Shown: positions 2,830 through 36,461 of the stretch, piece after piece
Numbering within the stretch: the first letter of the stretch is position 1
Layout of the letters: every line of letters starts with the position of its first letter
Assembly: GCA_027340875.1 (NCBI GenBank)
Contig: DAIENX010000105.1
Coordinates: forward strand, 1 to 42,866
Length of the DNA: 42,866 bases
Direction: 5' to 3'
From: Elusimicrobiota bacterium
Lineage (GTDB): Bacteria > Elusimicrobiota > Elusimicrobia > Elusimicrobiales > UBA9959
Position numbers and translations under genes: made by a program
Notes under the pieces: generated by a model
What the model saw: only the letters and a program-made list of their open reading frames with translations
Databases searched by the model: none
Told to the model about the DNA's origin: nothing

Positions 2830-2867
2830 TTGCATGCGGCAATACCGGGCCTTGCAAGCGGCAATAC
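2830..2867. promoter_or_regulatory. Tandem palindromic putative transcription-factor sites upstream of the hdr-mvh operon
   Basis: TTGCATGCGGCAATAC (2830-2845) and TTGCAAGCGGCAATAC (2852-2867): 15/16 identical, 22-bp period, each containing TTGC-N5-GCAA. Confidence 0.55.
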
Positions 2868-3019
2868 GTCCGCTGTTTACCGTCACGGCGGAAGCGGCCG
2901 CATTTTGTTAGCATTTTTATGTCGGCAGTATGGGCGTTCCGGCCCGGGGTACTCCGACATGACCGCAAGGTCGGGGGGCGGGGGCGCTGCAACTGGGATA
3001 GCTATCTGGAGGTGGCCTC

Positions 3020-3613
3020 ATGCCGCTCGAACGGAAGATAAAATACGAAAAGGACTGCGACAGGGAGTTCGCGGACTGGGTCACGAGCCAGACCGGGGGC
3101 GAGAACCTGCGCCACTGCATACAGTGCGGCGTCTGCAGCGCCGCCTGTCCGCTGTCGCTGTACATGGACTACACGCCGCGCAGGCTCATCAACATGGCGC
3201 GCGCCGGCTTCAAGAAGGAGGTCCTCAGCTCCTTCACTATCTGGCTTTGCACCAGCTGCTACTCCTGCAGGGCCGAATGCCCCAAGCAGATAAAGGTCAC
3301 GGACATAATGTACCTGCTGAAGCGGCGGGCCATAGAGGAAGGCGTCTATCCGAAGCGCTTCCCGATACCGGTGCTCGCGCGCGAGTTCGGCAGGATGATC
3401 TTCACCTTCGGCCGCGTCGACGAGTCGCTGCTGGTGGCCAACCTCTTCCTGCGCACCAACTGGCTGCGGTTCCTCGACATGGCGGGCGTGGGCCTGGGCC
3501 TGATGCGGAAAGGGCGGATGTCCTTCGTGCCGCACGGCATCGAGGCCCGCGGCCAGCTCCGCAGGGTGCTGGAGGCCATAGATTCAGAGGAGAGCAAGGA
3601 GGCTGCGAAATGA
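3020..3613 (+). CDS. hdrC: Heterodisulfide reductase subunit C (2x[4Fe-4S])
   Basis: CIQCGVCSAACP and WLCTSCYSCRAECP motifs; SD ggagg upstream; position in the operon. Confidence 0.9.
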   Translation: MPLERKIKYEKDCDREFADWVTSQTGGENLRHCIQCGVCSAACPLSLYMDYTPRRLINMARAGFKKEVLSSFTIWLCTSCYSCRAECPKQIKVTDIMYLLKRRAIEEGVYPKRFPIPVLAREFGRMIFTFGRVDESLLVANLFLRTNWLRFLDMAGVGLGLMRKGRMSFVPHGIEARGQLRRVLEAIDSEESKEAAK

Positions 3614-4470
3614 GATACCAGTATTTTCCCGGCTGTTCGCTGAAGGGCTCCGGCCGGGCCTACGAGGAGTCCTTCCTGGCCGTGTTCAGGGCGCTCGGCG
3701 TCGAGGTCAGGGAGCTGGAGGACTGGAACTGCTGCGGCGCCACGGCCTATATGTCGGTGGACGAGACGAAGTCCTACGCGCTGGCCGGCCGCAACCTGGC
3801 TATAGCCGCCCGCGACAGGGCCGACGTGATGGCCCCGTGCAGCGCGTGCTACCTGGTGCTGAACAAGACCATGAGGGGCCTGGGCGAGAACCCGGAACTG
3901 AAGCGAAAGGTTACCGGCGCGCTGAAGGCCGGCGGCCTGGATTACCGGGAAGGCGTGAAAGTGCGGCATCCGCTGGACGTGCTGGTCAACGACATCGGCC
4001 TCGATGAGATCAGGAAGCGCGTCAAGAAGCCGCTGTCAGGGCTGAAGCTGGCCTCCTATTACGGCTGCCAGATAGTAAGGCCGTTCGCGACCTTCGACGA
4101 CCAGGACGACCCGGTTACGATGGACAGGCTGATGCAGGCCTGCGGCGCCGAGTGCGTGGACTGGCCGCTGAAGACCCACTGCTGCGGCGGCAGCCTGACC
4201 GGCACGCTGCCGGACGCGGGCCTGCGGCTCGCCTATATTATCCTTAATGAGGCCAAGAAACGGGGGGCCGCGGCCCTTGTTACGCCCTGCCCCCTCTGCC
4301 AGTTCAATCTTGACGCCTACCAGGGGCAGATGGCGGGAAAATTCGGGCGCCCGAACATGCCGGTGCTCTATTTCACGCAGCTGATAGGGCTGGCGATGGG
4401 CCTGGACGCCGACGAGCTGGGGATCGGGCGCGGGATAATACCCGCGCAAGCCGCCCTGGCGGGGAGATAA
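3610..4470 (+). CDS. hdrB: Heterodisulfide reductase subunit B (two CCG domains)
   Basis: Start MRYQYFPGCS overlaps the hdrC stop (ATGA). Motifs DWNCCGA...CSAC and YYGC...CCG...CPLCQFNLD. Confidence 0.93.
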   Translation: MRYQYFPGCSLKGSGRAYEESFLAVFRALGVEVRELEDWNCCGATAYMSVDETKSYALAGRNLAIAARDRADVMAPCSACYLVLNKTMRGLGENPELKRKVTGALKAGGLDYREGVKVRHPLDVLVNDIGLDEIRKRVKKPLSGLKLASYYGCQIVRPFATFDDQDDPVTMDRLMQACGAECVDWPLKTHCCGGSLTGTLPDAGLRLAYIILNEAKKRGAAALVTPCPLCQFNLDAYQGQMAGKFGRPNMPVLYFTQLIGLAMGLDADELGIGRGIIPAQAALAGR

Positions 4471-4472
4471 AG

Positions 4473-6473
4473 ATGCCGAAAAAAGACCATAAGACCAACG
4501 GCCTGCCCCGGGTAGGCTTCTACATCTGCCACTGCGGCAGCAACATAGCCGGCACGATCGACGTAGCCGCCGTGCGGGAGTACGCGGCCGGGCTGCCGGG
4601 CGTGGCGGTGGCGCGGGACTACAAGTACATGTGCTCGGACCCGGGCCAGGAGTTGATAGCCTCCGACATAGAGAAGTACGGCCTGGAGCGCATCGTCGTC
4701 TCCGCCTGCTCGCCGAACCTGCACGAGGAGACGTTCCGCAAGGCCGCCGCCAAGGGCGGGCTGAACCCGTTCCGGGTGCAGATGGTCAACATACGCGAGC
4801 ACGCTTCCTGGGTTCATACGGACAGGGCCTCCGCCACGGAGAAGGCGAAGGACCTCGCCCGCGCGGCCGTGGCGCGCGTCGTGCATCACAGGGCGCTGGA
4901 ACGCAAGCGCGTGCCGGTGGACCCGAACGTGCTGGTGGTAGGCGGCGGCATAGCCGGCATACACGCCGCGCTCACGCTGGCCAACGCCGGCAAGAAGGTC
5001 ACGCTGGTGGAGAAAGAGGCCACGATAGGCGGGCACATGGCCCTGTTCGACAAGACCTTCCCGACGCTGGATTGCGCGGCCTGCATCCTGACGCCGAAGA
5101 TGTCGGCCGTCAAGGCGCATCCGAACATCCGTCTCTGGACCTGGTCCGAGGTGGAGAAGGTGGAGGGCTACGTCGGCAACTACAAGGTGACCGTGAAGCG
5201 CAAGCCGCGCTACGTCAACGAGGACCTCTGCGTGGGCTGTATGGAATGCATAGACGCCTGCGTCTACAAGGAGCCCAAGTTCCACGACAAGTTCAACCAG
5301 GGCCTCGGAAAACGCAAGCCGGTCTATATAGACTTCCCGCAGGCTACGCCCAAGGTGGTGCTGGTGGACCCGGAGACCTGCCTGCAGCTCAAGACCGGGA
5401 AGTGCCAGAAGAAATGCGCCTCGGTCTGCGACCGCAACGCTTTCGATTTCGGGCAGAAGGAGCGGTCCGAGGAGATCCAGGTCGGCTCCATAGTGCTGGC
5501 CACGGGCTTCAGGACCTACGACGCGAAGAAGGACAAGCAGTACGGCTACGGCCGCTACCCGGGGGTCTACACGGCGCTGGAAGTAGAGCGCCTGGTGAAC
5601 GCCTCCGGCCCGACCTCCGGAGAGATAAAGCTGCGCGACGGGCGCGAGCCGAAGGCGGTGGGCATCATCCACTGCGTCGGGTCGCGCGACGAGAAGAGCA
5701 ATAAATGGTGCTCCCGCGTCTGCTGCATGTACTCGCTGAAGCTCGCGCACCTGATCAAGGAGCACTCGGGGGCGGAAGTGTACAACTTCTACATCGACAT
5801 GCGCGCCCCGGGCAAGGCCTACGAGGAGTTCTACGACAAGCTGCTGGGCGAGGGCGTGCACTTCGTGCGCGGCCGCGTCGCCGAGGTGACCGACTGGGCG
5901 GTGAGCCCGGAGGAGGAGGGCAAGCTCGTGATGCGCGTGGAGGACACGCTGGCCGGCATAGTGCGCAGGATCCCGGTGGACATGGTGGTGCTCTCCACGG
6001 GGCTGGAGCCCCAGGCGGACGCGCAGGAGGTGCGCCGCCGCTTCAACATAGGGTGCGGCAGCGAGGGCTTCTTCCAGGAGCGGCACCCAAAGCTGGCCCC
6101 CGTTAACACCTTCACCGACGGGGTCTACATAGCCGGGGCCTGCCAGGGCCCGAGGGACATCCCGGACACGGTGGCCCAGGCCGGGGCCGCCGCGGCCGAG
6201 GCGCTGGCGCTGATAGACGCCGGGCACGTAGAGCTGGAACCCAACACCTCCGCGGTGGCGGAAGCTGAGTGCAGCGGCTGTAAGACCTGCGTGCCGCTGT
6301 GCCCGTACGGCGCGGTATCGTTCGACGAGGCGAAGCGGAAGGCCGCGATCAACGAGGTGCTCTGCAAGGGATGCGGGGTATGCGCGGCGGCCTGCCCTTC
6401 GGGCTCCATAACGCAGAACCTGTTCGGCGACGATGAGATCTTCAGCGAGATCGAAGGAGTGCTTGCGAAATGA
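4473..6473 (+). CDS. hdrA: Heterodisulfide reductase subunit A (FAD/Fe-S, electron-bifurcating type)
   Basis: CHCGSNI, ACSP..HE, GGGIAG FAD motif, LFDKTFPTLDC, inserted ferredoxin, CVGSRD, CSRVCCMYSLK, C-terminal 2x[4Fe-4S]. Confidence 0.96.
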   Translation: MPKKDHKTNGLPRVGFYICHCGSNIAGTIDVAAVREYAAGLPGVAVARDYKYMCSDPGQELIASDIEKYGLERIVVSACSPNLHEETFRKAAAKGGLNPFRVQMVNIREHASWVHTDRASATEKAKDLARAAVARVVHHRALERKRVPVDPNVLVVGGGIAGIHAALTLANAGKKVTLVEKEATIGGHMALFDKTFPTLDCAACILTPKMSAVKAHPNIRLWTWSEVEKVEGYVGNYKVTVKRKPRYVNEDLCVGCMECIDACVYKEPKFHDKFNQGLGKRKPVYIDFPQATPKVVLVDPETCLQLKTGKCQKKCASVCDRNAFDFGQKERSEEIQVGSIVLATGFRTYDAKKDKQYGYGRYPGVYTALEVERLVNASGPTSGEIKLRDGREPKAVGIIHCVGSRDEKSNKWCSRVCCMYSLKLAHLIKEHSGAEVYNFYIDMRAPGKAYEEFYDKLLGEGVHFVRGRVAEVTDWAVSPEEEGKLVMRVEDTLAGIVRRIPVDMVVLSTGLEPQADAQEVRRRFNIGCGSEGFFQERHPKLAPVNTFTDGVYIAGACQGPRDIPDTVAQAGAAAAEALALIDAGHVELEPNTSAVAEAECSGCKTCVPLCPYGAVSFDEAKRKAAINEVLCKGCGVCAAACPSGSITQNLFGDDEIFSEIEGVLAK

Positions 6474-6970
6474 GTACCGTGAAATTCGAACCGAAGATAG
6501 TGGCGTTCTTCTGCAACTGGTGTACCTACACGGCGGCGGACCTCGCCGGCGTGTCGCGCCTGAAATACGCCCCCAACGTCCGCGTGATCCGGGTGATGTG
6601 CTCCGGCCGGGTGGACCCGCAGTTCGTGGTGGAGGCCTTCGCGAAAGGCGCCGACGGCGTGCTGCTGGGCGGCTGCCATCCGGGCGACTGCCACTACGCC
6701 GAGGGCAACTACAAGACCCTGCGCCGCATGAAGATGCTGGAACGGATGCTGAAGGCGATGGGCGTCGAGGACGGCCGCTTCCGGCTGGAGTGGATCTCCG
6801 GCGCGGAGGGGGACAAGGTCCGCTCCGTGGTCAACGAGATGACCGAGAAGGTCCGCTCCCTCGGCCCGCTGGACCTGCCCGGCAAGTTCAGGGAGTGGGA
6901 CAAGGAGATAGAGGAGTTGGAGGCCCGCGTGAAGGCCTCCGAGGCCGAGGAGGAGAAGATCCATGCCTGA
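6470..6970 (+). CDS. mvhD: F420-non-reducing hydrogenase [2Fe-2S] subunit D
   Basis: FCNWCTYTAADLAG, RVMCSGRV, GCHPGDCHY, WISGAEG. Confidence 0.95.
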   Translation: MSTVKFEPKIVAFFCNWCTYTAADLAGVSRLKYAPNVRVIRVMCSGRVDPQFVVEAFAKGADGVLLGGCHPGDCHYAEGNYKTLRRMKMLERMLKAMGVEDGRFRLEWISGAEGDKVRSVVNEMTEKVRSLGPLDLPGKFREWDKEIEELEARVKASEAEEEKIHA

Positions 6971-7928
6971 CAAGCCTAAGGTAGCTTTTTACTGGTGCGC
7001 GTCCTGCGGCGGCTGCGAAGAGGCTGTCGTGGACCTCGCCGAGGACATACTGAAGGTGGTGGAAGCCGTGGACATTGTGCTCTGGCCCGTGGCGATGGAC
7101 TTCAAGAAGGAAGACATCGAGGCCCGGGCGGACAAGTCCATAACGGTCTCCTTCATAAACGGGGCGGTACGCACCTCGGAGCAGGAGGAGTGGGCGCGCC
7201 TGCTCAGGAAGAAGAGCGCGTTCGTGATCTCCTTCGGGGCCTGCGCCAATTCCGGCGGGATCCCGGCCCTGGCCAACCAGTCCGCCAGGGAGGACATACT
7301 GAAGTACGTCTACGAGGACTGCCCCAGCGTGGAGAACCCGGCCAAGTCCCGCCCGGCCACCGCGCACGCGGAGGAGGGCCGGGCGCTCACGCTGCCCGAG
7401 TTCCGCGGCATGGTCCGGGCGCTGGACGAGGTCATCGACGTGGACTATTACCTTCCCGGCTGCCCTCCGACGCCCAAGCTGATACAGGAGGCCGTAGGCG
7501 CGCTGCTGACCGGGAACCTGCCGCCGAAAGGGACGGTGCTCTCGCCCGACGTGGCGCTCTGCGACCAGTGCAAGCGCAAGGATTCCAAGCCCGCCGACCT
7601 GTCGATAAAGGAGTTCAAGCGGCCGCACCAGGTGCAGATAGACCCGGAGAAGTGCATGCTGGCGCAGGGGCTGCTCTGCATGGGCCCGGCCACCCGCGCC
7701 GGCTGCGAGGCGCTCTGTCCCGGCGGCAACATGCCCTGCACCGGCTGCTTCGGGCCCACCTCCAAGGTGCGCGACCACGGCGCCAAGTTCATCTCGTCGG
7801 TGTTCTCCAACCTGGCGGCCAAAGAGCCGGGGGAGATCGACGCCGCGCTCGACGGCGTGCCGGACCCGGTAGGCACTTTCTACCGCTATGGCCTTGCCAA
7901 GAGCCTGCTGAGGCGCAAGATCAACTAA
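6963..7928 (+). CDS. mvhG: [NiFe]-hydrogenase small subunit (group 3c)
   Basis: CASCGGC, GACANSGGIP, PGCPP, LCMGPATRAGC...CP...PCTGCFGP. Confidence 0.92.
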   Translation: MPDKPKVAFYWCASCGGCEEAVVDLAEDILKVVEAVDIVLWPVAMDFKKEDIEARADKSITVSFINGAVRTSEQEEWARLLRKKSAFVISFGACANSGGIPALANQSAREDILKYVYEDCPSVENPAKSRPATAHAEEGRALTLPEFRGMVRALDEVIDVDYYLPGCPPTPKLIQEAVGALLTGNLPPKGTVLSPDVALCDQCKRKDSKPADLSIKEFKRPHQVQIDPEKCMLAQGLLCMGPATRAGCEALCPGGNMPCTGCFGPTSKVRDHGAKFISSVFSNLAAKEPGEIDAALDGVPDPVGTFYRYGLAKSLLRRKIN

Positions 7929-7939
7929 GGAGAAGGACA

Positions 7940-9454
7940 ATGGAAAAGACAGCCCAGGAAGTCTGGAACCAGGCGCACAAGAACGCGAACTCCGGCCGCC
8001 GCTCGGTCACGATAGACCCTATAACGAGGCTGGAGGGGCACGGCAAGATAGAGATCTTCATGAACGACAAGGGGGACGTGGACCGGGCTTACCTGCAGAT
8101 ACCGGAGCTGCGCGGCTTCGAGGTGTTCAGCAGGGGCCGCCCCGCCGAGGACATGCCGCAGATCACCTCGCGCATCTGCGGCGTCTGTCCGACGGCCCAC
8201 CATATGGCCTCGGCGAAGGCGCTCGACGACCTTTACGGCGTGGAATGCCACCCGGTGGGGCGCAAGATCAGGGAACTGGTCTATAACGCCTTCATGCTGG
8301 AGGACCACGCGATACACTTCTACATCCTGGGCGGGCCGGACTTCATCGTGGGGCCGGACGCGCCGAAGGAGCTGCGCAACGTGCTTGGCGTGATAGGCAA
8401 GGTCGGCCTGGACGTGGGCAAGAAGGTCATCTCGATGCGGCGGCGGATCAGGGAGATCATCAATTACGCCGGCGGCAAGGTGATACACCCGGTGATGGGC
8501 CTGCCGGGCGGGGTGGCCAAGGGCATCTCGGCGGAACAGCTCCCGGCCTTCAGGGAGATCGCGAAGGAAGGCCTCGAGTTCGCGCGGTTCACGCTGCAGG
8601 TCTTCCACGACATAGTCCTGAAGAACCCCGGATACGTGAACCTGATAACCTCCGACGCCTACACCCACAAGACCTACTACATGGGCCTGGTGGACGGGCA
8701 GAACAAGGTAAACTTCTACGACGGCGATATCCGCGTAGTGAACCCGGAGGGGAAGGAGTTCGCCCGGTTCCCCGTGAGGGACTACCTGCAGCATATAGCG
8801 GAGCACGTGGAGCCCTGGAGCTATATCAAGTTCCCTTTCCTTAAAAAAGTGGGCTGGCACGGCTTCGCGGAGGGAGGCTCCAGCGGGGTCTACGCCGTCG
8901 CCCCGATGGCGCGGCTGAACGTGGCCGACGGGATGGCCACGCCCGAGGCGCAGAAGGCCTACGAGGAGTATTTCCAGGTGCTGGGCGGCAAACCGGTGCA
9001 CCACACGCTGGCCAACCACTGGGCCCGCGTGGTCGAGATGCTGCAGGCCGCCGAGCGCATGGTGGAGCTCACTAACGATCCGGAAATAACGTCGAAGGAG
9101 TTCCGCACGCTGCCGACCAAGACCCCGGGACTCGGGGTTGGCGTGGTGGAGGCACCGCGCGGCACGCTGATACACCAGTACGAGACGGACGAGCGGGGGG
9201 TGATCACCAGGGCCAACCTGATAGTGGCCACGCTGAACAACTCCGCCCGCATAGCCATGAGCGTGGACAAGGCGGCCAAGGGGCTCATCAAGGGCGGGAA
9301 GGTGAACGACGGCCTGCTGAACATGGTGGAGATGGCCTTCAGGGCCTATGACCCGTGCTTCGGCTGCGCCACGCATACGCTGCCGGGCGAGATGCCGCTG
9401 CAGGTGACGCTGCGCACTATGAAGGGGGAGGTCATAAAGGAGATCTGGCGTTGA
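7940..9454 (+). CDS. mvhA: [NiFe]-hydrogenase large subunit (group 3c)
   Basis: ATG at 7940 after SD aggag. TRLEGHG, L1 RICGVC, EAPRG, L2 RAYDPCFGCATH followed by a cleavable C-terminal extension. Confidence 0.95.
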   Translation: MEKTAQEVWNQAHKNANSGRRSVTIDPITRLEGHGKIEIFMNDKGDVDRAYLQIPELRGFEVFSRGRPAEDMPQITSRICGVCPTAHHMASAKALDDLYGVECHPVGRKIRELVYNAFMLEDHAIHFYILGGPDFIVGPDAPKELRNVLGVIGKVGLDVGKKVISMRRRIREIINYAGGKVIHPVMGLPGGVAKGISAEQLPAFREIAKEGLEFARFTLQVFHDIVLKNPGYVNLITSDAYTHKTYYMGLVDGQNKVNFYDGDIRVVNPEGKEFARFPVRDYLQHIAEHVEPWSYIKFPFLKKVGWHGFAEGGSSGVYAVAPMARLNVADGMATPEAQKAYEEYFQVLGGKPVHHTLANHWARVVEMLQAAERMVELTNDPEITSKEFRTLPTKTPGLGVGVVEAPRGTLIHQYETDERGVITRANLIVATLNNSARIAMSVDKAAKGLIKGGKVNDGLLNMVEMAFRAYDPCFGCATHTLPGEMPLQVTLRTMKGEVIKEIWR

Positions 9455-9464
9455 AGACGACGCA

Positions 9465-9523
9465 GGCGGGGTACGTGCGCAAGGCCCGGGGGGAGTGAGG
9501 AGGGCCCGAGGCGCGTCCCCGCC
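9465..9523 (+). other. Stem-loop just downstream of mvhA (possible 3' stabiliser)
   Basis: ggcgggg(t)acgtgc pairs with gcgcgtccccgcc; inner ggccc/gggcc; no U-tract. Confidence 0.45.
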
Positions 9524-9574
9524 GCCGGAGTGGATTGCCTGGCTGTATATGAATGGAACGGGTAATGAGGCTGT

Positions 9575-9689
9575 GGTGTCAGCGTTCGGATGGCAGGGAT
9601 ATGGGCCGGAAGGCCTTCGCGCAGGGAGGCGCTTGCACAGCGCGCCGACCGCGTGCCTGACGGTCATATCCCTGCCATCCGCTGGCGCT
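9575..9689 (+). repeat. Structured intergenic element, copy A
   Basis: Perfect 17-bp inverted repeat 9587-9603/9665-9681, extendable with G-U pairs. Internal cores are shared with the element at 17849-17988. Confidence 0.75.
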
Positions 9690-9700
9690 CTGTAAGTCTG

Positions 9701-10183
9701 ATGACCTACTGCATAAATAAGCCGCTGGTGCTGGCGCTGGGCAATGACATGCTCGGGGACGACGGCGTGGCCTTCCACGCCGCCGTCGCCCTGCGGGAGG
9801 AGTTCGGGGACAGGGCGGATATCCTGCCCACCGGAGAGGCGGGCCTGCCGCTCCTTGACCACATGGCCGCCTACAGGAGGGTGCTGATACTCGACGCGGC
9901 CTATACGGGCCTCTGCCCGCCGGGCACCATACTTCGCTGGGACAGGGAGGATTTCAGGCGCTGCGTGGCGCCCTCACAGCACGCCGCCGGCCTGCCGCAG
10001 CTGCTGGACCTGGCCGAGCGCCTCGGGCTGGAGTTCCCTTCGGAACTCAGGGTGGTATGCATGGAAGTGCACGACCCCACCGTTTTCAGGGAATCCCTTA
10101 CCCCGGAAGCGAGGCGGGCGCTGCCGGACATGATCGCCGCTTCACGCGGCATCATCTCCTCCTGGACCGCGTCCCCCGTATAG
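9701..10183 (+). CDS. Hydrogenase maturation endopeptidase (HycI/HoxW family)
   Basis: LVLALGNDMLGDDGV, LILDA...PGTI, SQH motif; directly follows mvhA. ATG 9701 preferred over the ORF-track start. Confidence 0.88.
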   Translation: MTYCINKPLVLALGNDMLGDDGVAFHAAVALREEFGDRADILPTGEAGLPLLDHMAAYRRVLILDAAYTGLCPPGTILRWDREDFRRCVAPSQHAAGLPQLLDLAERLGLEFPSELRVVCMEVHDPTVFRESLTPEARRALPDMIAASRGIISSWTASPV

Positions 10184-13688: not shown

Positions 13689-15557
13689 TCAGGCCGCTTC
13701 CCAGTACCACTCTATCTGCGACGGGTTCGGGGCCCCGTCCTTGGTTCTGTCCTCGCCCGACTGGTCCATGCGCGGCAGGATATCCCGCATCTTCCAGCTT
13801 TCGTTCTGCCTGCCGAACACCCAGTATTCCGTGAAGGGCTCGGGCGAAGAGTCGTGGTGCAGCTCCCTGCCGTTGCGGCGCATCGAGCGCTGGGCGGTGG
13901 CGGTTATCCTCGCGGTGAACTCGTCCAGGCGCAGGGGGTTCTTCTCCGCCGGGGACGTCAGGACCACCTCGGCGCGGCGCGTGTAGAAGCTGTCGAGCCC
14001 GAACGTGATGCCTTCCGCCTTCCGCGCGTCCATCAGCCTGCGCAGCTTGGCCAGGGCCTCGGCAGAGACGAAGTCCGCGCTCAGGCCGCCCGGATCGTTG
14101 GCTCCCCAGGCCGTATAGATGCTCTCGAAAGCCAGCGTGGCCGCTATCTCCATCTTCTGGCGGTCCCAGCGGGAAGCGGCGGTGACGTTGCGGGCGGAGG
14201 CGGCCGGCAGCGGGTCCTGCCGGTGTGGGCGGAAGCCGCTCCCAGGGCCTTCCGCCGGCAGCACCGGCGGGCGCATCGGGGGAGAGGCGAGCGGAACGTC
14301 CCCGGGATGCCCCATGGGCATGGGGAAAGCGCCAGGGTCGCCGAGCGCGGCCACGGCCGCCGCGCCGGCCGTCCGGACGGAGGCCGGCCTGTCCGCGAGG
14401 CCCTCGGTCCTGTTGGGCGCGCCGAGGTAATCCGTCTCGCCCACCTGGTCTATCCTGGCCAGGGCCCAGCGGTCGTTAAGCTGGTGGAAGGTCCAGAACT
14501 CCTGAAAGTCGGAGGAGAGCCTGCTGCCGCTGATCAGCGAGCCGGTGCTCTCGTCTATGGTATAGTCCCTGGCCGACGCGGTTATCAGCGCGGTGAAGGC
14601 GCGGCCTTCCTTTTCGGCCGGGCAGCTTACGTGGACGAAATCTATGCGCGTGACCGACACGTCCTCCATCATGTTGATCTCGCCGCGCCGGCGCATGTTC
14701 TCGACCTTAGAACTGTGGCCGGCGCGCAGGTACGGGAGCATGATGTCCTCCAGGCCGCTGTAATCCCTTTTCTGCCAGGCGTCCTGCACCTTGAAGAAGA
14801 TGTCCCTGACCACGCCGCGCAGCGGCTCCGGAGCGAATTCCGGGGCGGAGGGGGCTAGGCTCTCCATCAGCGCGGCGGTCTCGCCGGCCTTGGCCGCCAC
14901 CGCGCTCTGCGGGAGCTTGCCGCCTCCTGACCGGCTTCCGCCGTACAGGTTCTGTCCCGCCCATTTGAAGGCCAGGACCACCAGCATGAGGCCGTAGAAG
15001 ATGTAATCGAAAAGAGTGGTCTTGCGGCTGTGATAGCGGCCGCCGTAGTAATGTCCGCCTCCGCCGAAGCCGCCTCCCTTGTTGTGGACTATGAAGCCCC
15101 CGGCGATGAAGGTGTGCGGCGGCGCGACCTCCAGGTTGTAAACCTCGGCCACGCCGGCCGGTTTGATGGACTTTATCCGGGCCCAGACCCGTTCGCCCTC
15201 CTGGAGGACCGCCACTGCCCCGCCCTTCTCCAGGTTCCTGACCTCGGCGAAGCCGTAACGGGTCAGCAGCGGATGTTCCGCGGTGGCCACCAGGCTGCCG
15301 CGGCTGGTCGCTATCTTCACGAGGCGGTCGGTCTTCTTGATGAACTTCAGCACCTCGATCTTCACGAAACGGTCGTTGGAGAAAGCGAGCACGGTGTCCC
15401 CGGGGCGGACCCTCTCTATCGGGACGTCGCCGGCCGGGGTGAGGATGGGAGTGCCGGCGGGGAAGCAGCCGCCTCCCCCGCCTCCTCCTCCCCCGGCGCG
15501 GGGCCAGGCGGGGGCGGCGGCCATCAGCAGCGCCGCCGAGAGGAAGAGCCCTTTCAT
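13689..15557 (-). CDS. Exported membrane protein: signal peptide, poly-Gly, Hint (intein-like) domain, TM, two Tim44-like domains
   Basis: Hint blocks CFPAGT, TAEH, VYNLEV, FIVHN; TM LFDYIFYGLMLVVLAF; two repeats of (Q/Y).AW...D ... F.E(F/Y)W.F......W....I. Confidence 0.85.
   Translation of the reverse strand: MKGLFLSAALLMAAAPAWPRAGGGGGGGGGCFPAGTPILTPAGDVPIERVRPGDTVLAFSNDRFVKIEVLKFIKKTDRLVKIATSRGSLVATAEHPLLTRYGFAEVRNLEKGGAVAVLQEGERVWARIKSIKPAGVAEVYNLEVAPPHTFIAGGFIVHNKGGGFGGGGHYYGGRYHSRKTTLFDYIFYGLMLVVLAFKWAGQNLYGGSRSGGGKLPQSAVAAKAGETAALMESLAPSAPEFAPEPLRGVVRDIFFKVQDAWQKRDYSGLEDIMLPYLRAGHSSKVENMRRRGEINMMEDVSVTRIDFVHVSCPAEKEGRAFTALITASARDYTIDESTGSLISGSRLSSDFQEFWTFHQLNDRWALARIDQVGETDYLGAPNRTEGLADRPASVRTAGAAAVAALGDPGAFPMPMGHPGDVPLASPPMRPPVLPAEGPGSGFRPHRQDPLPAASARNVTAASRWDRQKMEIAATLAFESIYTAWGANDPGGLSADFVSAEALAKLRRLMDARKAEGITFGLDSFYTRRAEVVLTSPAEKNPLRLDEFTARITATAQRSMRRNGRELHHDSSPEPFTEYWVFGRQNESWKMRDILPRMDQSGEDRTKDGAPNPSQIEWYWEAA
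15081..15467 (-). other. Hint / bacterial intein-like domain, 129 aa (C31-N159), no homing endonuclease
   Basis: N-terminal Cys, TxxH, terminal His-Asn; the +1 residue is Lys. Confidence 0.88.
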
Positions 15558-15826
15558 CAGTAAAGCGCCGCGATGAGACCGCCGAGCACGGCGGCCGCGA
15601 TGATGATGCTGACACCGAGTATGGCGGCGGACACGATGCGGCCGAAATAGTCCGCCACCGCCCTGTTGCCGCGCAGTATCTCCTTGCCCTCGTCCAGCTC
15701 GGGCGTGAACTTGTCGAATACGGCCGGGAGATGCGCCGATATCCAGATCAGCAGGAAAGCTCCCGCCAGGCCGCCGGCCAGCGCGAAGAAGAGCGCCCAG
15801 GCCACGTTTATTATGGTGCTGAACAT
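15557..15826 (-). CDS. Small membrane protein, DUF350/YjfL-like
   Basis: Two TM helices flanking FDKFTPELDEGKEILRGNRAVA (DUF350-like pattern, recognised by eye). Its stop overlaps the next start (TGATG); SD GGAGG. Confidence 0.7.
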   Translation of the reverse strand: MFSTIINVAWALFFALAGGLAGAFLLIWISAHLPAVFDKFTPELDEGKEILRGNRAVADYFGRIVSAAILGVSIIIAAAVLGGLIAALY

Positions 15827-22356: not shown

Positions 22357-23628
22357 ATGAAGGGTTTCATCAGGGCATTGGACCGCGGGCAGGTCACCAA
22401 CTTCTCCCGCAATTCATACGAGGTGGTCTTCTCCATCTTCATGATCGCGCTTGCGTGGTTCTATCGCGAGAACCCGCTGATAGTCTATCCCCAGGTACTG
22501 TACTGCTTCCTGGCGCTGCTGGGTTCCAACTTCGTCTTCAACTATCTGCTGCGCCGTCGCACCGCGGTGAATCTCTGGCTGATAGACCTCATACTGCTGC
22601 TGAACCTCTGGACGATAACCGGCATCCTCCTGTTCTCCGGCGGCGGCGACTCCTATTTCTGGGTGTTGTACCTGCTGCCGGTGTTCGCCGCCTCCCTGAT
22701 GGCCAGCCTGAAGGACGCGGCCGGGGTGGTCTTCCTCTGCGGCATAAGCCTGGTGGTGATGAGCTGGCCGGTCTCGCCGGACGACCTGGCCGGCCTGCTG
22801 GGGCTTTCGGCCAAGATAGCGGTGCTCGCCTCCTCTTCCTGGGTGGTCTTCAATACCGCTCAGGCCAGGAAGATCACCGAGGCCGGCCTCGCCTTCAAGA
22901 GGGCGCAGGTGGAAACGCTCACCCGCGATATCGCCGAGAAAGAGACGGAGCTAGTGAGGACCGCCTCGTCCAACGAGATCGGAACGCTGGTCAGCGGGGT
23001 GATGCACGACCTGGGGAACTGCGTCTCGGTCATACTGCTGAGCCTGGAGATCTTCTCGGCCGAGGAGAAACCGTCGAAGAGCGACCTCGACAGGATCGTA
23101 AAGGCGGCCAGGTTCGCGAAGGCCATGGTCGCCAACGCGCTGGGAATAGTACGCGGCCAGGAATACCTTTTCGAGCCGGTGAGCCTCGGCGAGATAGCCG
23201 AATCCGCCGAGATGTTGACCAGCTACGCGGCCAGGAAGGCCGGCGCCACGGTGGAGCTGCGCATCCCGGCGGACCTTCCGGAGATAAAAGCGAGCCGGGT
23301 CCATCTCGAGCGCATCTTCATCAATACCATACTGAACTCCGTCTCCTTCCTGCCGCAGGGCGGCGTGGTGGCCATTTCCGCGGGAGTGGATGGGGACAGC
23401 CTTAAGGTGGAGATAGCCGACAACGGCCCGGGTTTTCCGGCCAAGGTGCTGGAGGGCGGGGTCAAGGCGTTCGGGACCACCCGCAAGGAGAAAGGCGGTA
23501 CCGGCCTGGGGCTTTTCGTCTGCGAGCAGATAGCCAGGCGGCACGGCGGCCGCCTTAAGCTGGATAAGGCGGCCGGCGGCGGGGCCATGGTGCGCCTGAT
23601 CCTGCCTCTGGGCGGCCCGGCCGCCTGA
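22357..23628 (+). CDS. Multi-TM sensor histidine kinase
   Basis: About 6 TM helices; MHDLGN H-box; DNGPG and GTGLGL. Confidence 0.88.
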   Translation: MKGFIRALDRGQVTNFSRNSYEVVFSIFMIALAWFYRENPLIVYPQVLYCFLALLGSNFVFNYLLRRRTAVNLWLIDLILLLNLWTITGILLFSGGGDSYFWVLYLLPVFAASLMASLKDAAGVVFLCGISLVVMSWPVSPDDLAGLLGLSAKIAVLASSSWVVFNTAQARKITEAGLAFKRAQVETLTRDIAEKETELVRTASSNEIGTLVSGVMHDLGNCVSVILLSLEIFSAEEKPSKSDLDRIVKAARFAKAMVANALGIVRGQEYLFEPVSLGEIAESAEMLTSYAARKAGATVELRIPADLPEIKASRVHLERIFINTILNSVSFLPQGGVVAISAGVDGDSLKVEIADNGPGFPAKVLEGGVKAFGTTRKEKGGTGLGLFVCEQIARRHGGRLKLDKAAGGGAMVRLILPLGGPAA

Positions 23629-23752
23629 GAACCGGCGGCCCGGGCTCCGCCTGCGCCGGGGCTTGGCAGGCCGGGTTATTTTATATATATTGGTCTCTGC
23701 GTTTGGGGGAAGGCCGGCGGAAATACCGCGGACCGGCATAGCGGGGGTAACA

Positions 23753-26578
23753 ATGGAGACGGGAGACAGCCACAAGAACGGGTACATCCTTATCGTAGAG
23801 GACGATCCCGGAGTCATGGAACTCGAGGCGCAGCGCCTCTACCCGCTGGGCTATCCAATAGCCAAAGCCTCCGCCCCCACGGACGCCATAGCCATGCTGG
23901 CGCGCGGCACTCCGGAACTGATGCTGCTCGATTACTCCCTTCCGGGAATGAGCGCGCTGGACCTGATCTCCGGCCTGGAGCGAGAGTCCGTGCCTGTGCC
24001 GCCGTTCTTAATGGTCACAGGCCGCGGGGACGAAAAGGTTGCCGTGGAGGTCATGAAATCAGGCGCGCTGGACTACATAGTCAAGGACGCCCGCTTCCTG
24101 GATAACCTCCTACGCACCGTAAACAAGGCCCTTGAAAAATCCGCGTTGCAGAAGAATCTGAAGAAGGCCGAGGAGGAGCTGCGCAAGAGCGCGCGCCTCT
24201 ATAATTTCCTCGCGCAGGTCAACGGGGCCGTGGCCAGGGAGCGTGACGCCGTGCGGCTGCTGCAGGAGATCTGCCGCATAGCGGTGGAAGTGGGCGGCAT
24301 GCGCATGGCCTGGGTGGGAAGGCCGGATCCGGACCTGGGACGCTTCGTAGCCGTCTGTTCGGCCGGGCACGTAGAAGGTTATCTGGAGGGCGTCAAGATC
24401 ACTCTCAACGGGGACACCGGCAAAGGCCCCAGCGGCACTTCATTCCGGACCGGAGAGATCTCCGTATGCCCGGATATAGCCACGGACCCGCGCATGGAGC
24501 CGTGGCGGGAGGAGGCCCTCCGGAGGGAGTACCGCTCCTCGGCGTCCATCCCTCTTTCCATCGGAGAAAAAGTGATCTTCACGCTCAATCTGTACTCCTC
24601 GGAGGCCGATTTCTTCGTTCCGGAGGAGATGCAGCTGCTATCCGAGATACGGGGCGACATCTCCTTCGCGCTGGAGGCGCTGGACAGCGAACAGAAGCGG
24701 GCCGCCGCCCAGGCGGCCCTGGAACGCACCGCGGCGCACCTGGCCCACGTGATGGAGGCCAATCCGGTGGTCATTTTCAAGCTGCGCCTGGCCGGCGGGC
24801 GGTTCGTGCAGGAATGGGTAAGCGGCAACGTCCACGCACTCATAGGCTATGACCCCGAGGAAGTGCTGGCGCCCGGCTGGTTCGAGGGCGTGTTGCATCC
24901 GGAAGACCTGCCTCTGGTGGTCGAGGGGCGCCACAGGCTGGCGGCAGGCGAGACGGTGGTCTCCGACCTGAGGGTCAGGAAGAAGGGTAACGGCCATCTC
25001 TGGGTGCACGCCCAGCTCAAGCTGGTATCTCCGGACGAAGCCATAGGCTCATGGACGGATATCAGCCGGCTGAAGGAATCGGAGGTGGGGTTCCAGGAAC
25101 TGATAGACGCCTCGCCGTACGGCGTGGTGCTGCGCGACGGGCGCAATATCGCGTATATAAACAAACGCGGCCTGGAGATAGCGCGCGCCGCCTCGGCGAA
25201 GGAGGTCGTAGGACACGGAATACTGGAGCGCATCCCGGAGCGTTTCCATCCCGAGCTGATACGCAGGATGGCCGGGGTGGACGAGGGGATATCTGCCCCG
25301 CCCATGGAAATAGAAATAGAGGCGATGGACGGCAGCCTGGTGCCGCTGGAGATACACAGCCACCGGATACGGTACGGCGGGAAGGAGACGGCGGTGATCT
25401 TCTTCCGGGACCTTACCGAGAAGAAGCTGGCCGACCGCATGATGCGCGAGATCTCCGACATGCAACGGGTGGAATCCCTCGGCCAGCTGGCCGGCGGCAT
25501 AGCGCACGATTTCAACAACATGCTGACCGGCATTATGGCCAACATCTCCCTTCTGGAGAGGCGCTGCGGCGGGGACCCGGATACCAGGGACATACTGAAG
25601 GATACGCTGGTCGCGGCGGCCGAGGCCAAGAGCCTCACCGCCAACCTGCTGGCCTTCTCCAAGGGCGGAAAACCGGTCAAGAGGGAGATATGCCTGGAGA
25701 AGGTGCTCCGCGAGATATTCACCCTTTCCACCCGCGGCTCCAGCGCGGCCACGGAGCTGGAAATAGACAAGGAGCTCTGGAGCGTGGACGGGGACGAGCC
25801 CCAGCTCAAGCAGGCCGTTAACAACCTGCTGATCAACGCCCTGCAGGCCATGCCTAGAGGGGGGACGCTGCGCCTCTCCGCCGCTAACCACGGCGTGGAA
25901 CTGCCGCCGCCCGCTCTGCTGCCGGCCGGGAAATACGTGAAGATAACGGTGTCCGACACCGGCATAGGGATACCGGAGGAGTATCTGTCGCACATCTTCG
26001 AGCCCTACTTCTCCACCAAGAAGAAGGGCCACGGGCTGGGGCTTTCGATGGCCTGGTCGGTGGTCAAGAACCACGGCGGCCATATAGCGGTGGCCTCCAC
26101 TCCCGGTAAAGGGAGCGCCTTCGACATATATCTTCCCGCTACCGGCCGCTGCCTGAGAGCGGCGCAGGAGAAGAGCGCGGAGATCCGCCGGGGAACCGGC
26201 CGCATTCTGGTGCTGGAGGACGAAGAGATAGTTACGGGAGCGGTGCGGCGCATGCTGCGCGAGCTCGGCTACGAATGCGAAATAGTGCAGGACGGCAGGG
26301 CCGCGCTGCGGCGCTACGCGGAGGAAAAGGCCGCCGGCCGGCCTTTCGACGCCGTCATCATGGACCTCACCATTCCCGGAGGCATGGGCGGTAAGGACGC
26401 GGTGGCGGAGCTGAGGAAGAGCGACCCTTCCGCCAGGGTCATAGCCTCCAGCGGCTATTCCGACGACGCCGCGATGGCCGATTACGCTAGCAACGGGTTC
26501 GACGCCGTGCTGCCCAAGCCGTACAAGTTCGAGGAGCTGGCCGCGGCGCTGCAGAAGCTGCTGGCGAAACGGGACTGA
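23753..26578 (+). CDS. Hybrid histidine kinase REC-GAF-PAS-PAS-HisKA-HATPase-REC
   Basis: ILIVEDD...LLDYSLP; GAF region; AHDFNN; DTGIG; GHGLGL; C-terminal receiver MDLTIPG. ATG 23753 preferred. Confidence 0.9.
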   Translation: METGDSHKNGYILIVEDDPGVMELEAQRLYPLGYPIAKASAPTDAIAMLARGTPELMLLDYSLPGMSALDLISGLERESVPVPPFLMVTGRGDEKVAVEVMKSGALDYIVKDARFLDNLLRTVNKALEKSALQKNLKKAEEELRKSARLYNFLAQVNGAVARERDAVRLLQEICRIAVEVGGMRMAWVGRPDPDLGRFVAVCSAGHVEGYLEGVKITLNGDTGKGPSGTSFRTGEISVCPDIATDPRMEPWREEALRREYRSSASIPLSIGEKVIFTLNLYSSEADFFVPEEMQLLSEIRGDISFALEALDSEQKRAAAQAALERTAAHLAHVMEANPVVIFKLRLAGGRFVQEWVSGNVHALIGYDPEEVLAPGWFEGVLHPEDLPLVVEGRHRLAAGETVVSDLRVRKKGNGHLWVHAQLKLVSPDEAIGSWTDISRLKESEVGFQELIDASPYGVVLRDGRNIAYINKRGLEIARAASAKEVVGHGILERIPERFHPELIRRMAGVDEGISAPPMEIEIEAMDGSLVPLEIHSHRIRYGGKETAVIFFRDLTEKKLADRMMREISDMQRVESLGQLAGGIAHDFNNMLTGIMANISLLERRCGGDPDTRDILKDTLVAAAEAKSLTANLLAFSKGGKPVKREICLEKVLREIFTLSTRGSSAATELEIDKELWSVDGDEPQLKQAVNNLLINALQAMPRGGTLRLSAANHGVELPPPALLPAGKYVKITVSDTGIGIPEEYLSHIFEPYFSTKKKGHGLGLSMAWSVVKNHGGHIAVASTPGKGSAFDIYLPATGRCLRAAQEKSAEIRRGTGRILVLEDEEIVTGAVRRMLRELGYECEIVQDGRAALRRYAEEKAAGRPFDAVIMDLTIPGGMGGKDAVAELRKSDPSARVIASSGYSDDAAMADYASNGFDAVLPKPYKFEELAAALQKLLAKRD

Positions 26579-26579
26579 T

Positions 26580-29500
26580 ATGGCCGAGCTGCACCCCGAC
26601 CAGGGGTTACTGCGGTTCAAGCGGCGCCTGTGGGTGTTGTTAGCCCTTTTTTCCGCTGGCATCGTGGCCGGCGGCGTCATCTATCACGCCGATTTCCGCG
26701 GCGCGGTGGTCAGGGAGAAGTCTGACCTGTTAACCTCCATCGGCCGCACTAAAACGGCGGACCTCGTCTACTGGCGTGAGCAGCGGGAGCAAAGCCTGGC
26801 CTCGCTGGTGGACAGCCCGATACTGGGCGGCTACCTTGAACAGGTGGCTGCCGGGCAGGCCGGCAGCGAGCAGCTGCGTCTCCTGTCCGGCAGGCTGGCG
26901 GCCTTCGCAAAGAACAACCATTACGCTTCCGCCTACCTGAGCTCGTCCGACGGCAAAGTGCTGTTGGGTGCTGGCCTCGCCCGCAAGCGTGTCTGTCCCG
27001 GAGCCATGGCGCTGCTGAAAAGGATGGGGGACAGCAAGGCTCCGTTCATCGGCGACCTTGAATTGGATGAGGGCGGGCAGCCCGCGATCCACGGCGCCAT
27101 ACTGGCCGCGTGGGCCGGGGGACGGAAAACCTACCTGGTCATAACGATAGACCCTTACGTTTATCTGTACCCGTTCATGCGGACCTGGCCGACCGGCAGC
27201 GCTTCGGCGGAGACCCTGCTGGTGCGCAGGGACGGCGACTACGTCCTCTTCCTCAACGACCTGAAACATATCCGCCATACCGGGCTCAGGTTCCGCATCC
27301 CGATGTCCAACGAGACCCTTCCGGCGGCGGCGGGGCTGCGCGGGTTCAGCGGCGTCATGCGGGGAGTGGATTACCGCGGGGTCAAGGTGCTGGCCTACGT
27401 TTCCAGAGTGCCCGGCACCGACTGGGTCATCATCTCGAAGGAGGACGAAGCCGAGATCTTCTCCGGGCTGCACCGTACCACCAGCATCCTCTTCGCGCTG
27501 GTGCTGGCGCTGCTGGCCGGCGGCGGGGTCCTGGTTTATTCGCTGGTGATGCGGCGCGAAGCGGAATACGTATCCGGCCTGGGCGAGGCCGAGGCCCGTT
27601 TCACCCGCCTATATTCTCAGATGCTCGACAGCTACGCCTACGTGGACATGGCCGGACACATCATGGAATGCAACGCGGCCTTCGAGCAGCTGACGGGGTA
27701 TACGCTGGATGAGCTCAGGCGCCTGAGCTATTCGGACATAACCCCGGAGAAATGGCGCCAGGCCGAAAAGAGGATAGTGGAGGAGATAATAAGCAAAGGC
27801 GCTTACGGCCTCTACGAGAAGGAGTACCGCCGCAAGGACGGGACCATAGTGCCGGTGGAGCTGCGTACGGTGCTGGATCGGGACGGCGCGGGTCGTCCTG
27901 TAGGGATATGGACCATTATCCGCGACCTTTCCGAAAGGAAGAAGGCGGAGCTCGCCCTGGCCGGGAGCGAGGAGCAGTTCAGGCTGATGTTCGAGGAGCA
28001 TAACGCGGTAATGCTGCTGATAGACCCGGCTTCCGGCGAGGTGGTCAAGGCCAACAAGGCCGCTGAGGAGTTCTACGGTTATCCGAAGGCCAGTATGGTG
28101 GGAATGAACATCGCGAAGATGAACGGCCTGGAGAGGGCGGAGATAGCCGAGATGCACGGGAAAATACTCCGCGGCGAGCAGAACCTGTTCACCCTGCTGC
28201 ACCGCCTGGCGGACGGCTCCGGCAGGACGGTGGAGGTACGCTCATCCTCCATCCCTTCCGGCGGCAGGGAGCTGAACTTCGAGATAATCCACGACATCAC
28301 CGAGCGCGAGCGGGCGGTGGAGCGCCTGCGCGCCAGCGAAACGGCCCTCAAAGAGGCCCAGCGCCTGGCCAAAATAGGCAACTGGGAGCTGGACATCGCC
28401 TCCAACGGTCTCCGGTGGTCGGAGGAGATATTCTCCATATTCGAGATAGACCCGTCCCGTTTCGGAGCCTCGTACGCGGCCTTCCTGGACGCCATACATC
28501 CGGATGACAGGGAAGAGGTGAACAAGGCCTATACCGATTCCCTCAAGAACAGGACCAGGTACAACATAACGCACCGCCTGCTGATGAAGGACGGCCGGGT
28601 CAAGCACGTCAACGAGGTCTGCGAGACGTTCTACGACCCGGCCGGCAAGCCGCTGCGCTCAGTGGGGACGGTGCAGGATATCACCGAGCGCAAGACCGCC
28701 GAAGAGAAGATACGGGAGAGCGAGCTCGCCCTCAGGGAGGCCCAGCGCGTGGCCAGGATTGGCAGCTGGGACTGGGACGCCGGGACCGACACCATAACCT
28801 GGTCTCCGGAGTATTACCGCATCTTCGGTTTCGACCCGACCATGAAGCCGCCCGGCTATAAGGAGCATTTGAAGGTATATACCGCCGAGAGCGCCGCCAG
28901 GCTGGACGCCGCCGTCAAGAGGAACATGAAGACCGGCGAGCCGTACGTGCTGGATCTGGAGCTCGTAAACCCGAAGAACGGGACGAGATGGATAACCGCC
29001 CGCAGCGAGACCAAGCGGGACGACAAGGGCCGCATCACAGGCCTGCGGGGCACGGCCCAGGATATAACGGAGCGCAAGCTGGCCGAACGGACGCTACAGG
29101 AGACCCTTTTCTTCCTGAACGAGTCGCAGAATGCGGCCTGCATAGGCTCGTACACCACCGATTTCGGGAAAGGCAGGTGGGAGTCGTCCGAAGGCCTGGA
29201 CAAGATCTTCGGCATCGGGCCGGACTATGACCGCAGCGTAGAGGGCTGGATGAGCATGGTCCACCCGGACGACAGGGCGAGGATGGAGAAGTACCTGTGG
29301 GAGGAGGTCATCGGGAAGCGCAAGGACTTCGACAGGGAATATCGGATAACCCGCGTCAGCGACGGGAAAACGCGGTGGGTGCACGGACGCGGCGCCATGA
29401 CCTTCGGACCTGGCGGCTCCCCTCTGCGGATGATAGGCACCATACAGGACATAACGGAGCGGCGGGCGGCGGAGACCGAGCGCGCCGTGCTGCTCGAGCG

Positions 29501-31406: not shown

Positions 31407-31861
31407 GAATGGAGAACATGAAGAACGATGTTCCGGTCACCATAGTGATAGCCGAGGACGACGACGGGCACGCCAGGCTCATAGCCGAGCAGCTGGAGGA
31501 GTCTGGCGTCAACAACCCGACGATAAGGCTGAAGGACGGACAGGAGACGCTGGACTTCTTCTTCCGGGAGGGGAAAGGCCGGAAGGCGGAGGAGAACCAG
31601 GGCTACCTGCTGCTGCTGGACATAAAGATGCCCAAGGTGGACGGGATCGCCGTGCTGAAGCGGCTGAAACGCGACGAGGACCTTAAAATGCTGCCTATCA
31701 TAATGCTGACCACCACCGACGACCCGCGGGATGTGGAAGCCTGCTACCGGGCCGGTTGCAACAACTACCTGACCAAACCCGTCGCCTTCGCCAGGTTCGC
31801 GGAGATCGTCAAGCGGCTCGGGCTCTTTATTTCCATAGTCAAAGTAGCCAGGATACAGTAG
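31403..31861 (+). CDS. Single-domain response regulator (Rcp1-like)
   Basis: IAEDD, LLDIKMP, LTTT, YLTKP; overlaps the kinase stop. The start could be 31418. Confidence 0.9.
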   Translation: MRMENMKNDVPVTIVIAEDDDGHARLIAEQLEESGVNNPTIRLKDGQETLDFFFREGKGRKAEENQGYLLLLDIKMPKVDGIAVLKRLKRDEDLKMLPIIMLTTTDDPRDVEACYRAGCNNYLTKPVAFARFAEIVKRLGLFISIVKVARIQ

Positions 31862-31886
31862 CCGGCGCGCCGGCGACCACAGCGAT

Positions 31887-32576: not shown

Positions 32577-32586
32577 GGAAGACGAC

Positions 32587-34603: not shown

Positions 34604-34611
34604 GGGGGGAT

Positions 34612-36450: not shown

Positions 36451-36461
36451 GGTCCTTACAA

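Follow-up and report, generated by a model that had tools for sequence, protein, structure and literature searches.

The window analysed here, a stretch of 42,866 nucleotides from an Elusimicrobiota bacterium (GenBank assembly GCA_027340875.1, contig DAIENX010000105.1), contains a minus-strand gene (13689..15557) for a precursor of 622 amino acids (aa) in which an intein-like Hint domain interrupts the glycine-rich N-terminus of a predicted exported membrane protein with two Tim44-like domains. Together with the gene for a small DUF350-family membrane protein directly upstream, it makes up a module that is real, conserved and apparently undescribed, with a realistic chance of a new splicing chemistry centred on the Lys that follows the Hint (the +1 residue). 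Our best reading, to which we give about an even chance, is that after export Lys+1 accepts the Gly-thioester formed by the Hint, and that the R-x-GGG tip of the protein would thereby be re-joined to the membrane protein, possibly via an isopeptide bond.

The initial annotation had described a signal peptide, a poly-Gly stretch, an intact Hint, a transmembrane (TM) helix and two Tim44 domains, and this architecture was confirmed by reading of the open reading frame (ORF), Pfam scans and a hydrophobicity window. The N-terminus reads MKGLFLSAALLMAAAPAWP-RA-G9-C31 and begins with a probable Sec signal peptide (aa 1-17, or up to aa 19; 15507..15557), kept across the family and judged by inspection from its basic start, hydrophobic core and A-x-A motif, cleavage being possible after A17 (A-P-A|W) instead of before R20. 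The N-extein R20-A-G9 (15468..15500) ends in Gly-1 and is the family version of the R-x-GGG motif of bacterial Tim44 proteins. The Hint domain itself (aa 31-159, 129 aa; 15081..15467) carries Cys31 (15465-15467), T92-x-x-H95, V139-Y-N-L with Asn141 at position F:4, His148 and a terminal H158-N159, followed by K160-GGGFGGGG, that is, by Lys160 (codon AAG, 15078..15080) and a Gly/Tyr/Arg-rich tail (aa 161-181, 15015..15077). Cys occurs in the protein only at positions 31 and 312, leaving the Hint without a second Cys, and no endonuclease family was matched in Pfam-type family scans. In the profile hidden Markov model (HMM) scan that had been proposed as a check, PT-HINT (31.9 bits, cut-off 27.7), Hint_2 (29.1 bits, cut-off 28.4) and Tim44 (E 6.8e-20 over two stretches of the protein) all scored above cut-off. 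Beyond the single TM helix (aa 182-200, 14958..15014, mean Kyte-Doolittle (KD) value 1.62) lie Tim44-like domain 1 (14448..14849; 51.2 bits, above cut-off), a Pro/Ala-rich linker that varies in the family alignment (14178..14420) and Tim44-like domain 2 (13782..14144), an internal repeat of the first that remains here below the cut-off (27.8 versus 29.6 bits). The two copies align with each other (26% identity, E 7e-7), and the second one exceeds the cut-off in three relatives. A PDB search with the Tim44 part gave just two weak matches, both on the Pro/Ala linker, and the top row of a structure-based Atlas search was a 155-member Tim44 + PT-HINT cluster whose automatic name is misleading, a feature-based search of the Atlas having yielded nothing usable.

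Both Hint junctions are crossed unchanged by contigs of three sequencing runs of one study (two of these runs are possible source data), a run of a second study is identical over 15063-15324, and no joint skipping the Hint was found in the contigs compared; an assembly artefact is ruled out by these contigs. A 9-bp direct repeat (15069-15077 and 15468-15476, within 15069..15476) lies in both Gly runs, 399 bp apart and in frame, and flanks the Hint plus the Lys. No deletion between its two copies was found among the same contigs, and it would offer a plausible natural route to the joint loss of Hint and Lys in Hint-less alleles. A profile search of the source genome found no other Hint of the same kind. 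A scan for promoters found no site, and two terminator-like matches were at chance level.

A homologue search gave 465 matches, with relatives read from 120 among the matches listed, and a Tim44-motif search of a genome collection gave 305 related stretches, the best 80 of which were kept and correspond to 79 loci. A census of 630 distinct, whole Hints ending in H-N/Q/D was made, with partial matches and other endings left out. Lys occupies +1 in 492 of the 493 Hints of Tim44 hosts that have Cys or Ser at position 1, and the sole exception (Met+1) lies in a split gene (L014:5950-7665, the same gene as L127). This gene also has a stop within its second Tim44 domain and may be decaying. The neighbouring positions are nearly as constant (Gly-1 in 488 and Gly+2 in 492 of the same 493), and Cys, Ser or Thr at +1 was found in none of 502 Tim44-host Hints. 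The Lys is encoded by both AAG (96) and AAA (62), and Arg never appears at +1 across a tree of 170 substitutions per site. In the Tim44 part, by contrast, the eight columns with a Lys majority have Arg in 4-35% of cases, which suggests that at +1 an amine is needed and not a mere charge. The catalytic residues of the Hint, which the initial annotation had expected to be conserved among homologues, are indeed so, Cys1, His95 and His-Asn being near-invariant among the 492 K+1 Hints, and they evolve under purifying selection, the Hint having ratios of non-synonymous to synonymous substitution rates (dN/dS) of 0.08-0.24 in four pairs. Position F:4 is Asn in 95% of family Hints; this was considered as a Lys-specific trait and was ruled out, given that the solved type-A BIL (bacterial intein-like) domain of Clostridium thermocellum (PDB 2LWY) shares it.

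Lys+1 also disappears together with the nucleophile of the first step. All 13 Cys-less Hints lack Lys+1 (they have Tyr, Arg, His or a stop instead) and keep His-Asn, the block-B Thr being lost as well in 69% of them. These Hints fall into four clades on the Hint tree, and those of Tim44 proteins into three lineages on the host tree; the co-loss of Cys1 and Lys would then represent about four to six events, not thirteen. Lys is likewise absent from all seven Hint-less forms, which keep an attached R-A-G(n). As judged from these alignments, Lys+1 is part of the Hint machinery, and its recurrence with the Hint in unrelated hosts together with its co-loss with Cys1 ties it to the Cys1 step and not to Asn cyclisation. 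The role first proposed for this residue has been strengthened by its invariance, the lack of Arg and the co-loss with Cys1.

Unrelated hosts were sampled with a Hint-only query without the +1 residue, and the best 150 of 7,645 matches were examined. Within this sample, Lys+1 was found in 38 of the 56 non-C/S/T Hints of other hosts; four of these 38 are likely pieces of the Tim44-Hint family, and the remaining hosts, most of them exported, include pilin-like, LamG and PKD proteins, with ten different residues at +2. Nine other-host K+1 Hints end within 8 residues of the Lys, some with tails of 2-4 residues. As an acceptor, the alpha-amine of a dipeptide set free in this way would be poor. Individual cases include pilin-like and LamG/PKD surface proteins (P0223, P0213, P0174, P0259, P0243, P0256), three of which end in Hint-Lys plus 2-3 residues. 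In a second kind of array host (P0175, P0183, P0263), 2-3 K+1 Hints in tandem, linked by KG(n), are followed by a stretch rich in Ser, Thr and Lys and by a TM helix at the C-terminus, and Tim44 is absent. Two further proteins (P0155, P0227) are made up nearly entirely of 4-8 Hints in tandem, the linkers being 1-3 residues long and containing K or R, and have a tail rich in Pro and Cys. In P0278, whose Pfam accessions we take to be those of alpha-2-macroglobulin-type families, a Hint lies at a Gly-Gly|Cys ... His-Asn|Glu-Lys site, roughly at the position expected for the bait region.

The tip that the Hint interrupts is itself conserved. Among 17 gammaproteobacterial single-Tim44 loci of ~3 kb each, 14 N-termini were readable and 12 have [KR]-x-G-G right behind the signal site (10 Arg, 2 Lys), in agreement with the R-x-GGG start that the initial annotation had ascribed to bacterial Tim44 proteins; neither a Hint nor a DUF350-subfamily gene was found in these 17 loci. 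In the Hint-bearing family the basic residue of the N-extein is Arg in 201 cases and Lys in 12, about 7 of the latter being mis-read linkers of truncated genes. The Hint thus lies between a conserved tip and the membrane anchor; cleavage alone would sever this tip, and ligation would restore the ancestral arrangement. The earlier proposal that removal of the Hint restores a continuous motif holds in that the insertion site is fixed, being the same in relatives that carry different numbers of Hints; it does not hold for the Lys, which would remain behind and is absent from Hint-less relatives (0 of 7).

Based on this evidence, the gene pair may encode an inner-membrane module composed of the DUF350 protein and the double-Tim44 protein, the exported tail of the latter being made as a precursor. 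Export and removal of the signal peptide would let the Hint fold outside the cytoplasm, after which Cys31, aided by Thr92 and His95, would convert the Gly30-Cys31 bond to a thioester by conserved intein chemistry, a first step already suggested by the initial annotation and supported by the near-invariant Gly-1. The R-A-G9 acyl group would next be taken by Lys160 and His158-Asn159 would cyclise, freeing the 14-kDa Hint and leaving the R-x-GGG tip back on the membrane protein in a form resembling Hint-less relatives; in tandem arrays, repetition of the reaction would string the K-G(n) linkers together. Two routes can be envisaged for Lys160. In the epsilon-linked one, which is possible though tentative, the side-chain amine would attack before release, and a stable isopeptide branch would replace the branched intermediate formed with Cys, Ser or Thr. 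The side chain of Lys is longer than that of Cys. In intein structures, a distance of ~8-9 A typically separates the +1 side chain from the scissile bond (PMC7664689). In the alpha-linked route, which appears unlikely, the alpha-amine of Lys160 would act after Asn cyclisation, as has been proposed for type-A BILs, in which an N-terminal thioester is formed, cleavage takes place at Asn, ligation is proposed to use the freed alpha-amine and cleavage is dominant (PMC4031507). One BIL with Tyr+1 spliced only once this residue had been changed to Cys (PMC4031507). The alpha route would not obviously call for a specific side chain and the Lys is invariant, which suggests that the side-chain amine matters.

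Several observations weigh against re-joining by Lys+1. The type-A BILs described so far mostly cleave (PMC4031507, PMC7664689), and in the Tko CDC21-1 intein a catalytic Lys has such a helper role in the N-S shift or in hydrolysis (PMC5874633); the co-loss of Cys1 and Lys would be equally compatible with a Lys that merely aids these steps. At neutral pH the amine of lysine is largely in its protonated form, and no residue that could activate it was identified, F:4 being Asn as in 2LWY. The counts of the census refer to related sequences with kinship between them. Cys1 is kept with Tyr+1 in the short relatives P0187 and P0269, and other hosts follow a looser rule, with Arg (4), Tyr (3) and also Ile, Val and Asp at +1. 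Cys-less lineages drop the whole R-Gly tip and retain the operon. Cleavage would bare K-G-G-G, which is similar to the normal tip, and Lys replaces Arg in 2 of the 12 ordinary tips. Lastly, topology is ambiguous in one-Hint forms, for which the positive-inside rule lends no support to N-out, 45 of 75 having more K/R before the TM helix and 18 more after it. Multi-Hint forms agree with that topology in 121 of 139 cases, and export of the Hint is well supported for them; for the 622-aa copy it is suggested by the signal peptide alone.

Cleavage without ligation, which we consider somewhat doubtful on balance, is the foremost alternative. Lys+1 would then help the N-S shift or thioester hydrolysis and/or supply a new K-G-G-G N-terminus that mimics R-x-GGG, with release of the Hint and of short Gly peptides and unmasking of the membrane protein. 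Such a process would be in line with the behaviour of characterised type-A BILs (PMC7664689, PMC4031507), with the invariance of Gly+2 in Tim44 hosts and with the catalytic Lys precedent (PMC5874633), and would account for the co-loss with Cys1 and for Lys before very short tails. It leaves unexplained, however, why the Arg of the N-extein and the fixed RGGGG are retained if they are discarded, and it gives no account of why Arg never replaces Lys if a basic N-terminal residue suffices.

The gene directly upstream (15557..15826, minus strand), which the initial annotation had overlooked, encodes a small membrane protein of 89 aa whose stop overlaps the next start by one base (TGATG), suggesting translational coupling with the precursor. 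Its assignment to the DUF350 family comes from homologues: the ORF itself has no Pfam match, 16 of 17 homologues scanned match PF03994, 6 of them above cut-off (26 bits), and the protein is 38-78% identical to those matching homologues. A gene of this subfamily lies directly upstream in 70 of the 79 loci (HMM count), and the remaining 9 loci end <100 bases from the gene start. A search with the DUF350 gene alone in two further phyla located it in 4 of the 301 genomes of one and in 11 of the 301 genomes of the other; all 15 loci (two of them search centres) continued with an RGGGG-Hint gene, and all 36 Hints with a visible C-end read HN-K-G. The precursor gene was detected in 22 of the 401 genomes of its own phylum, all of one family, and the distribution is patchy. 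Loci among the best 80 stretches come from Elusimicrobiota, deltaproteobacteria, Verrucomicrobiota, Planctomycetota, Legionella and others, and the named close relatives among the matches listed are Elusimicrobia. A second weak DUF350-subfamily match in the source genome (contig C79, E 1.7e-5, two stretches) is probably an ordinary two-repeat DUF350 protein.

As regards the wider neighbourhood, LemA is found upstream in 24 loci and an extracytoplasmic function (ECF) sigma factor in 9, and no other recurrent neighbour outside the Elusimicrobia synteny was found among the 52 of 163 candidate neighbours scanned. PspA operons are reported to contain DUF350 along with enzymes of the polyamine and ATP-grasp kinds, namely spermidine-synthase-like and glutathionylspermidine-synthetase-like proteins (PMC11237479), which makes an envelope role for the module plausible but unproven. 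The role in envelope stress put forward by the initial annotation is conjectural, being drawn solely by guilt by association from DUF350 and, in some relatives, LemA and the ECF sigma factor. The gene after the precursor encodes a convergent SUI1 homologue. Synteny with ABC-F/TypA and SUI1 is retained in 23-33 loci and the GC content of the Hint region is 63% versus 57-72% nearby, which rules out a recent foreign insertion. A toxin was also ruled out, as the initial annotation had anticipated: there are no toxin or immunity genes, the C-terminal part is a conserved double Tim44 and the SUI1 homologue comes next. In one relative (L031:4217-5434) a second double-Tim44 frame without Hint or signal peptide lies upstream of the DUF350 gene, possibly as a duplication remnant.

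Relatives carry 0 to 5 tandem Hints at the same insertion site, joined by KG (135), KGGG (116), KGG (28) or longer linkers, and these arrays had likewise escaped the initial annotation. On the Hint tree tandem Hints cluster largely by array position and not by host, same-type Hints of different hosts being 36-47% identical (44% for the Tim44 part) and different types within one protein 32%. Near-identical recent duplications are present in P0122. Hint-less alleles are nested within a one-Hint clade of the host tree, indicating that Hint loss is secondary there; in this tree a loose pattern inflated the counts of >=2 Hints, which were set aside, three labels '0' (P0004, L017, L031_4217) belong to truncated sequences or ones without the tip, and one label '1' (L022) to a Cys-less form. 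The block-F His position is Gly in 95 of 113 Hints that precede the shortest linker (KG); in the Hints that precede the other linkers, 171 of 176 in one set and 200 of 204 in another have His or Asn there. In a 3-4-Hint array of an environmental genome it is the first Hint that lacks this residue. Loss of this His could slow C-terminal cleavage, which would fit ordered processing; it belongs largely to one clade and counts as a single observation. A three-Hint Tim44 protein (P0186) has Trp at family Gly positions, consistent with UGA = Gly mis-translated in the database.

A Hedgehog-like transfer, in which the thioester would hand the R-Gly peptide to an external acceptor (an amine of peptidoglycan, a polyamine or a different protein), Lys+1 would position or relay it and the Hint would work as an ATP-free ligase, is improbable. 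The polyamine and ATP-grasp ligase genes of DUF350 operons elsewhere (PMC11237479) and the K+1 Hints at the extreme end of pilins and surface proteins would fit it, yet the neighbourhoods examined (52 of 163 candidate neighbours scanned) show no recurrent gene of the ligase, polyamine or cell-wall kind, and the Hint is not followed by an acceptor-binding domain. More improbable still is that function resides in the folded Hint itself, as a module that binds or senses in the periplasm, whether attached or released, and for which the chemistry would be secondary. The same bacterial family does have separate genes that encode a signal peptide with a Cys-less Hint (L132:1498-2031, L133:294-767, L134:1498-1962, L138:1324-1953, P0163, P0171, P0191). 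They stop exactly at His-Asn, or bear one short TM helix, without an adjoining DUF350 gene, and look like secreted, catalytically dead Hints. Those ending at His-Asn (L132-L134, P0171) would favour such a module, as would the position-specific types kept across phyla and a divergence about as slow as that of the Tim44 part (36-47% versus 44%). Against it stand the Hint-less alleles with the DUF350 gene in place (L012, L024, L025) and the near-invariance of Cys1, His95 and His-Asn in 492 K+1 Hints. A selfish or neutral mini-intein-like passenger of floppy Gly-rich tails that excises itself and leaves a Lys scar is very improbable: variable copy number (0 to 5), recent duplications (P0122), occurrence in many unrelated exported proteins and nested Hint-less forms would suit it, but it has no homing endonuclease, its GC content is like that of the surroundings, its position-specific types are kept across phyla, 15 of 15 DUF350-found loci in two other phyla carry it, and Lys-dependent splicing would still be required.

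Elsewhere in the window, a heterodisulfide-reductase/Mvh-type hydrogenase cluster (2830-10183; CCG, flavin/Fe-S, FlpD, small and large subunits, maturation protease) and a dense cluster of about a dozen two-component genes (22357-42234), including that of a 1608-aa multi-PAS histidine kinase, were recognized.

The purpose of BILs, and whether they ligate in nature, are an open question, and the reviews consulted treat these domains as mainly cleaving on account of the missing +1 nucleophile. The family described here is a natural experiment in this regard, with hundreds of fixed-Lys+1 copies of a readily expressible 14-kDa domain as well as natural Cys-less and Hint-less alleles. If Lys is the acceptor, the splicing chemistry would be new and might serve as a tool for isopeptide ligation at chosen sites; should it be a catalytic helper only, the family would still stand for a Hint subfamily that is large and uncharacterised, and for an envelope module that is conserved. 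It may even be, although we regard this as doubtful, that a widespread class of Hints performs "isopeptide splicing" outside the cytoplasm through the side-chain amine of Lys+1, as an ATP-free and self-contained Gly-epsilon-Lys ligation. Such a ligation would be chemically akin to the last step of ubiquitin transfer, arrays would equip an inner-membrane protein with a branched chain of Lys and Gly that resists proteases, and in other bacteria, and probably in archaea, pilins and surface proteins would be capped or cross-linked by this domain. Literature searches found no description of the Tim44-Hint architecture or of a Lys+1 Hint; supplements and primary BIL papers lay outside their scope, superscripts may hide "Lys+1" and a passing mention is possible.

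Among known systems, the closest are the type-A BIL/PT-HINT domains, an affinity noted from the outset: the C. thermocellum BIL (2LWY) is the best solved match to the family profile (E 2.7e-23) and shares with it a compact Hint, block-B T-x-x-H-P, Asn at F:4, the terminal His-Asn, the lack of Cys, Ser or Thr at +1 and an extracellular host. Type-A BILs have been described, however, as lying in the variable parts of proteins that are not conserved, as having diverse flanks and as mostly cleaving (PMC7765530, PMC4031507), whereas the present Hints occupy a fixed site in a conserved membrane operon, not a toxin, with near-invariant Gly|Cys and His-Asn|Lys-Gly junctions and ordered tandem arrays, the low-complexity tail itself being variable. 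Class 1 mini-inteins (Mtu RecA, gp41-1, DnaB) match at E 4e-14 and weaker and have in common Cys1, T-x-x-H and His-Asn, but differ in having Cys, Ser or Thr at +1, Asp and not Asn at F:4 (Asn in 95% here) and a conserved enzyme motif as insertion site instead of an exported low-complexity one. Class 2 and 3 inteins lack Cys or Ser at position 1 and have Cys+1 or a Trp-Cys-Thr motif, and the present Hint has Cys1 and no second Cys. The Hog-Hint of Hedgehog (weak match, E 3e-6) resembles it in the Gly|Cys-Phe junction, the thioester chemistry and the exported protein, and departs from it in that here a terminal His-Asn and a C-extein are present and the sterol-recognition region is absent. With respect to the host protein, bacterial Tim44/TimA-type adaptors (NF033779, PF04280) have the same signal peptide, [KR]-x-GG tip, membrane helix and Tim44 domain, the family differing from them in its two Tim44 domains and in an NF033779 score of 30.7 bits against a cut-off of 80. 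DUF350 (YjfL) operons tied to PspA and polyamine enzymes likewise pair a small membrane protein of the DUF350 family, by co-transcription, with a Gly-rich exported one, in a report whose main text does not mention Tim44 (PMC11237479); PspA, ATP-grasp ligase and spermidine synthase genes do not recur in the loci examined here. Altogether, on sequence grounds the Hint is a type-A BIL in its motifs, though not in the "variable site, diverse flanks" of that group, and falls outside inteins of classes 1, 2 and 3, hedgehog domains and toxins.

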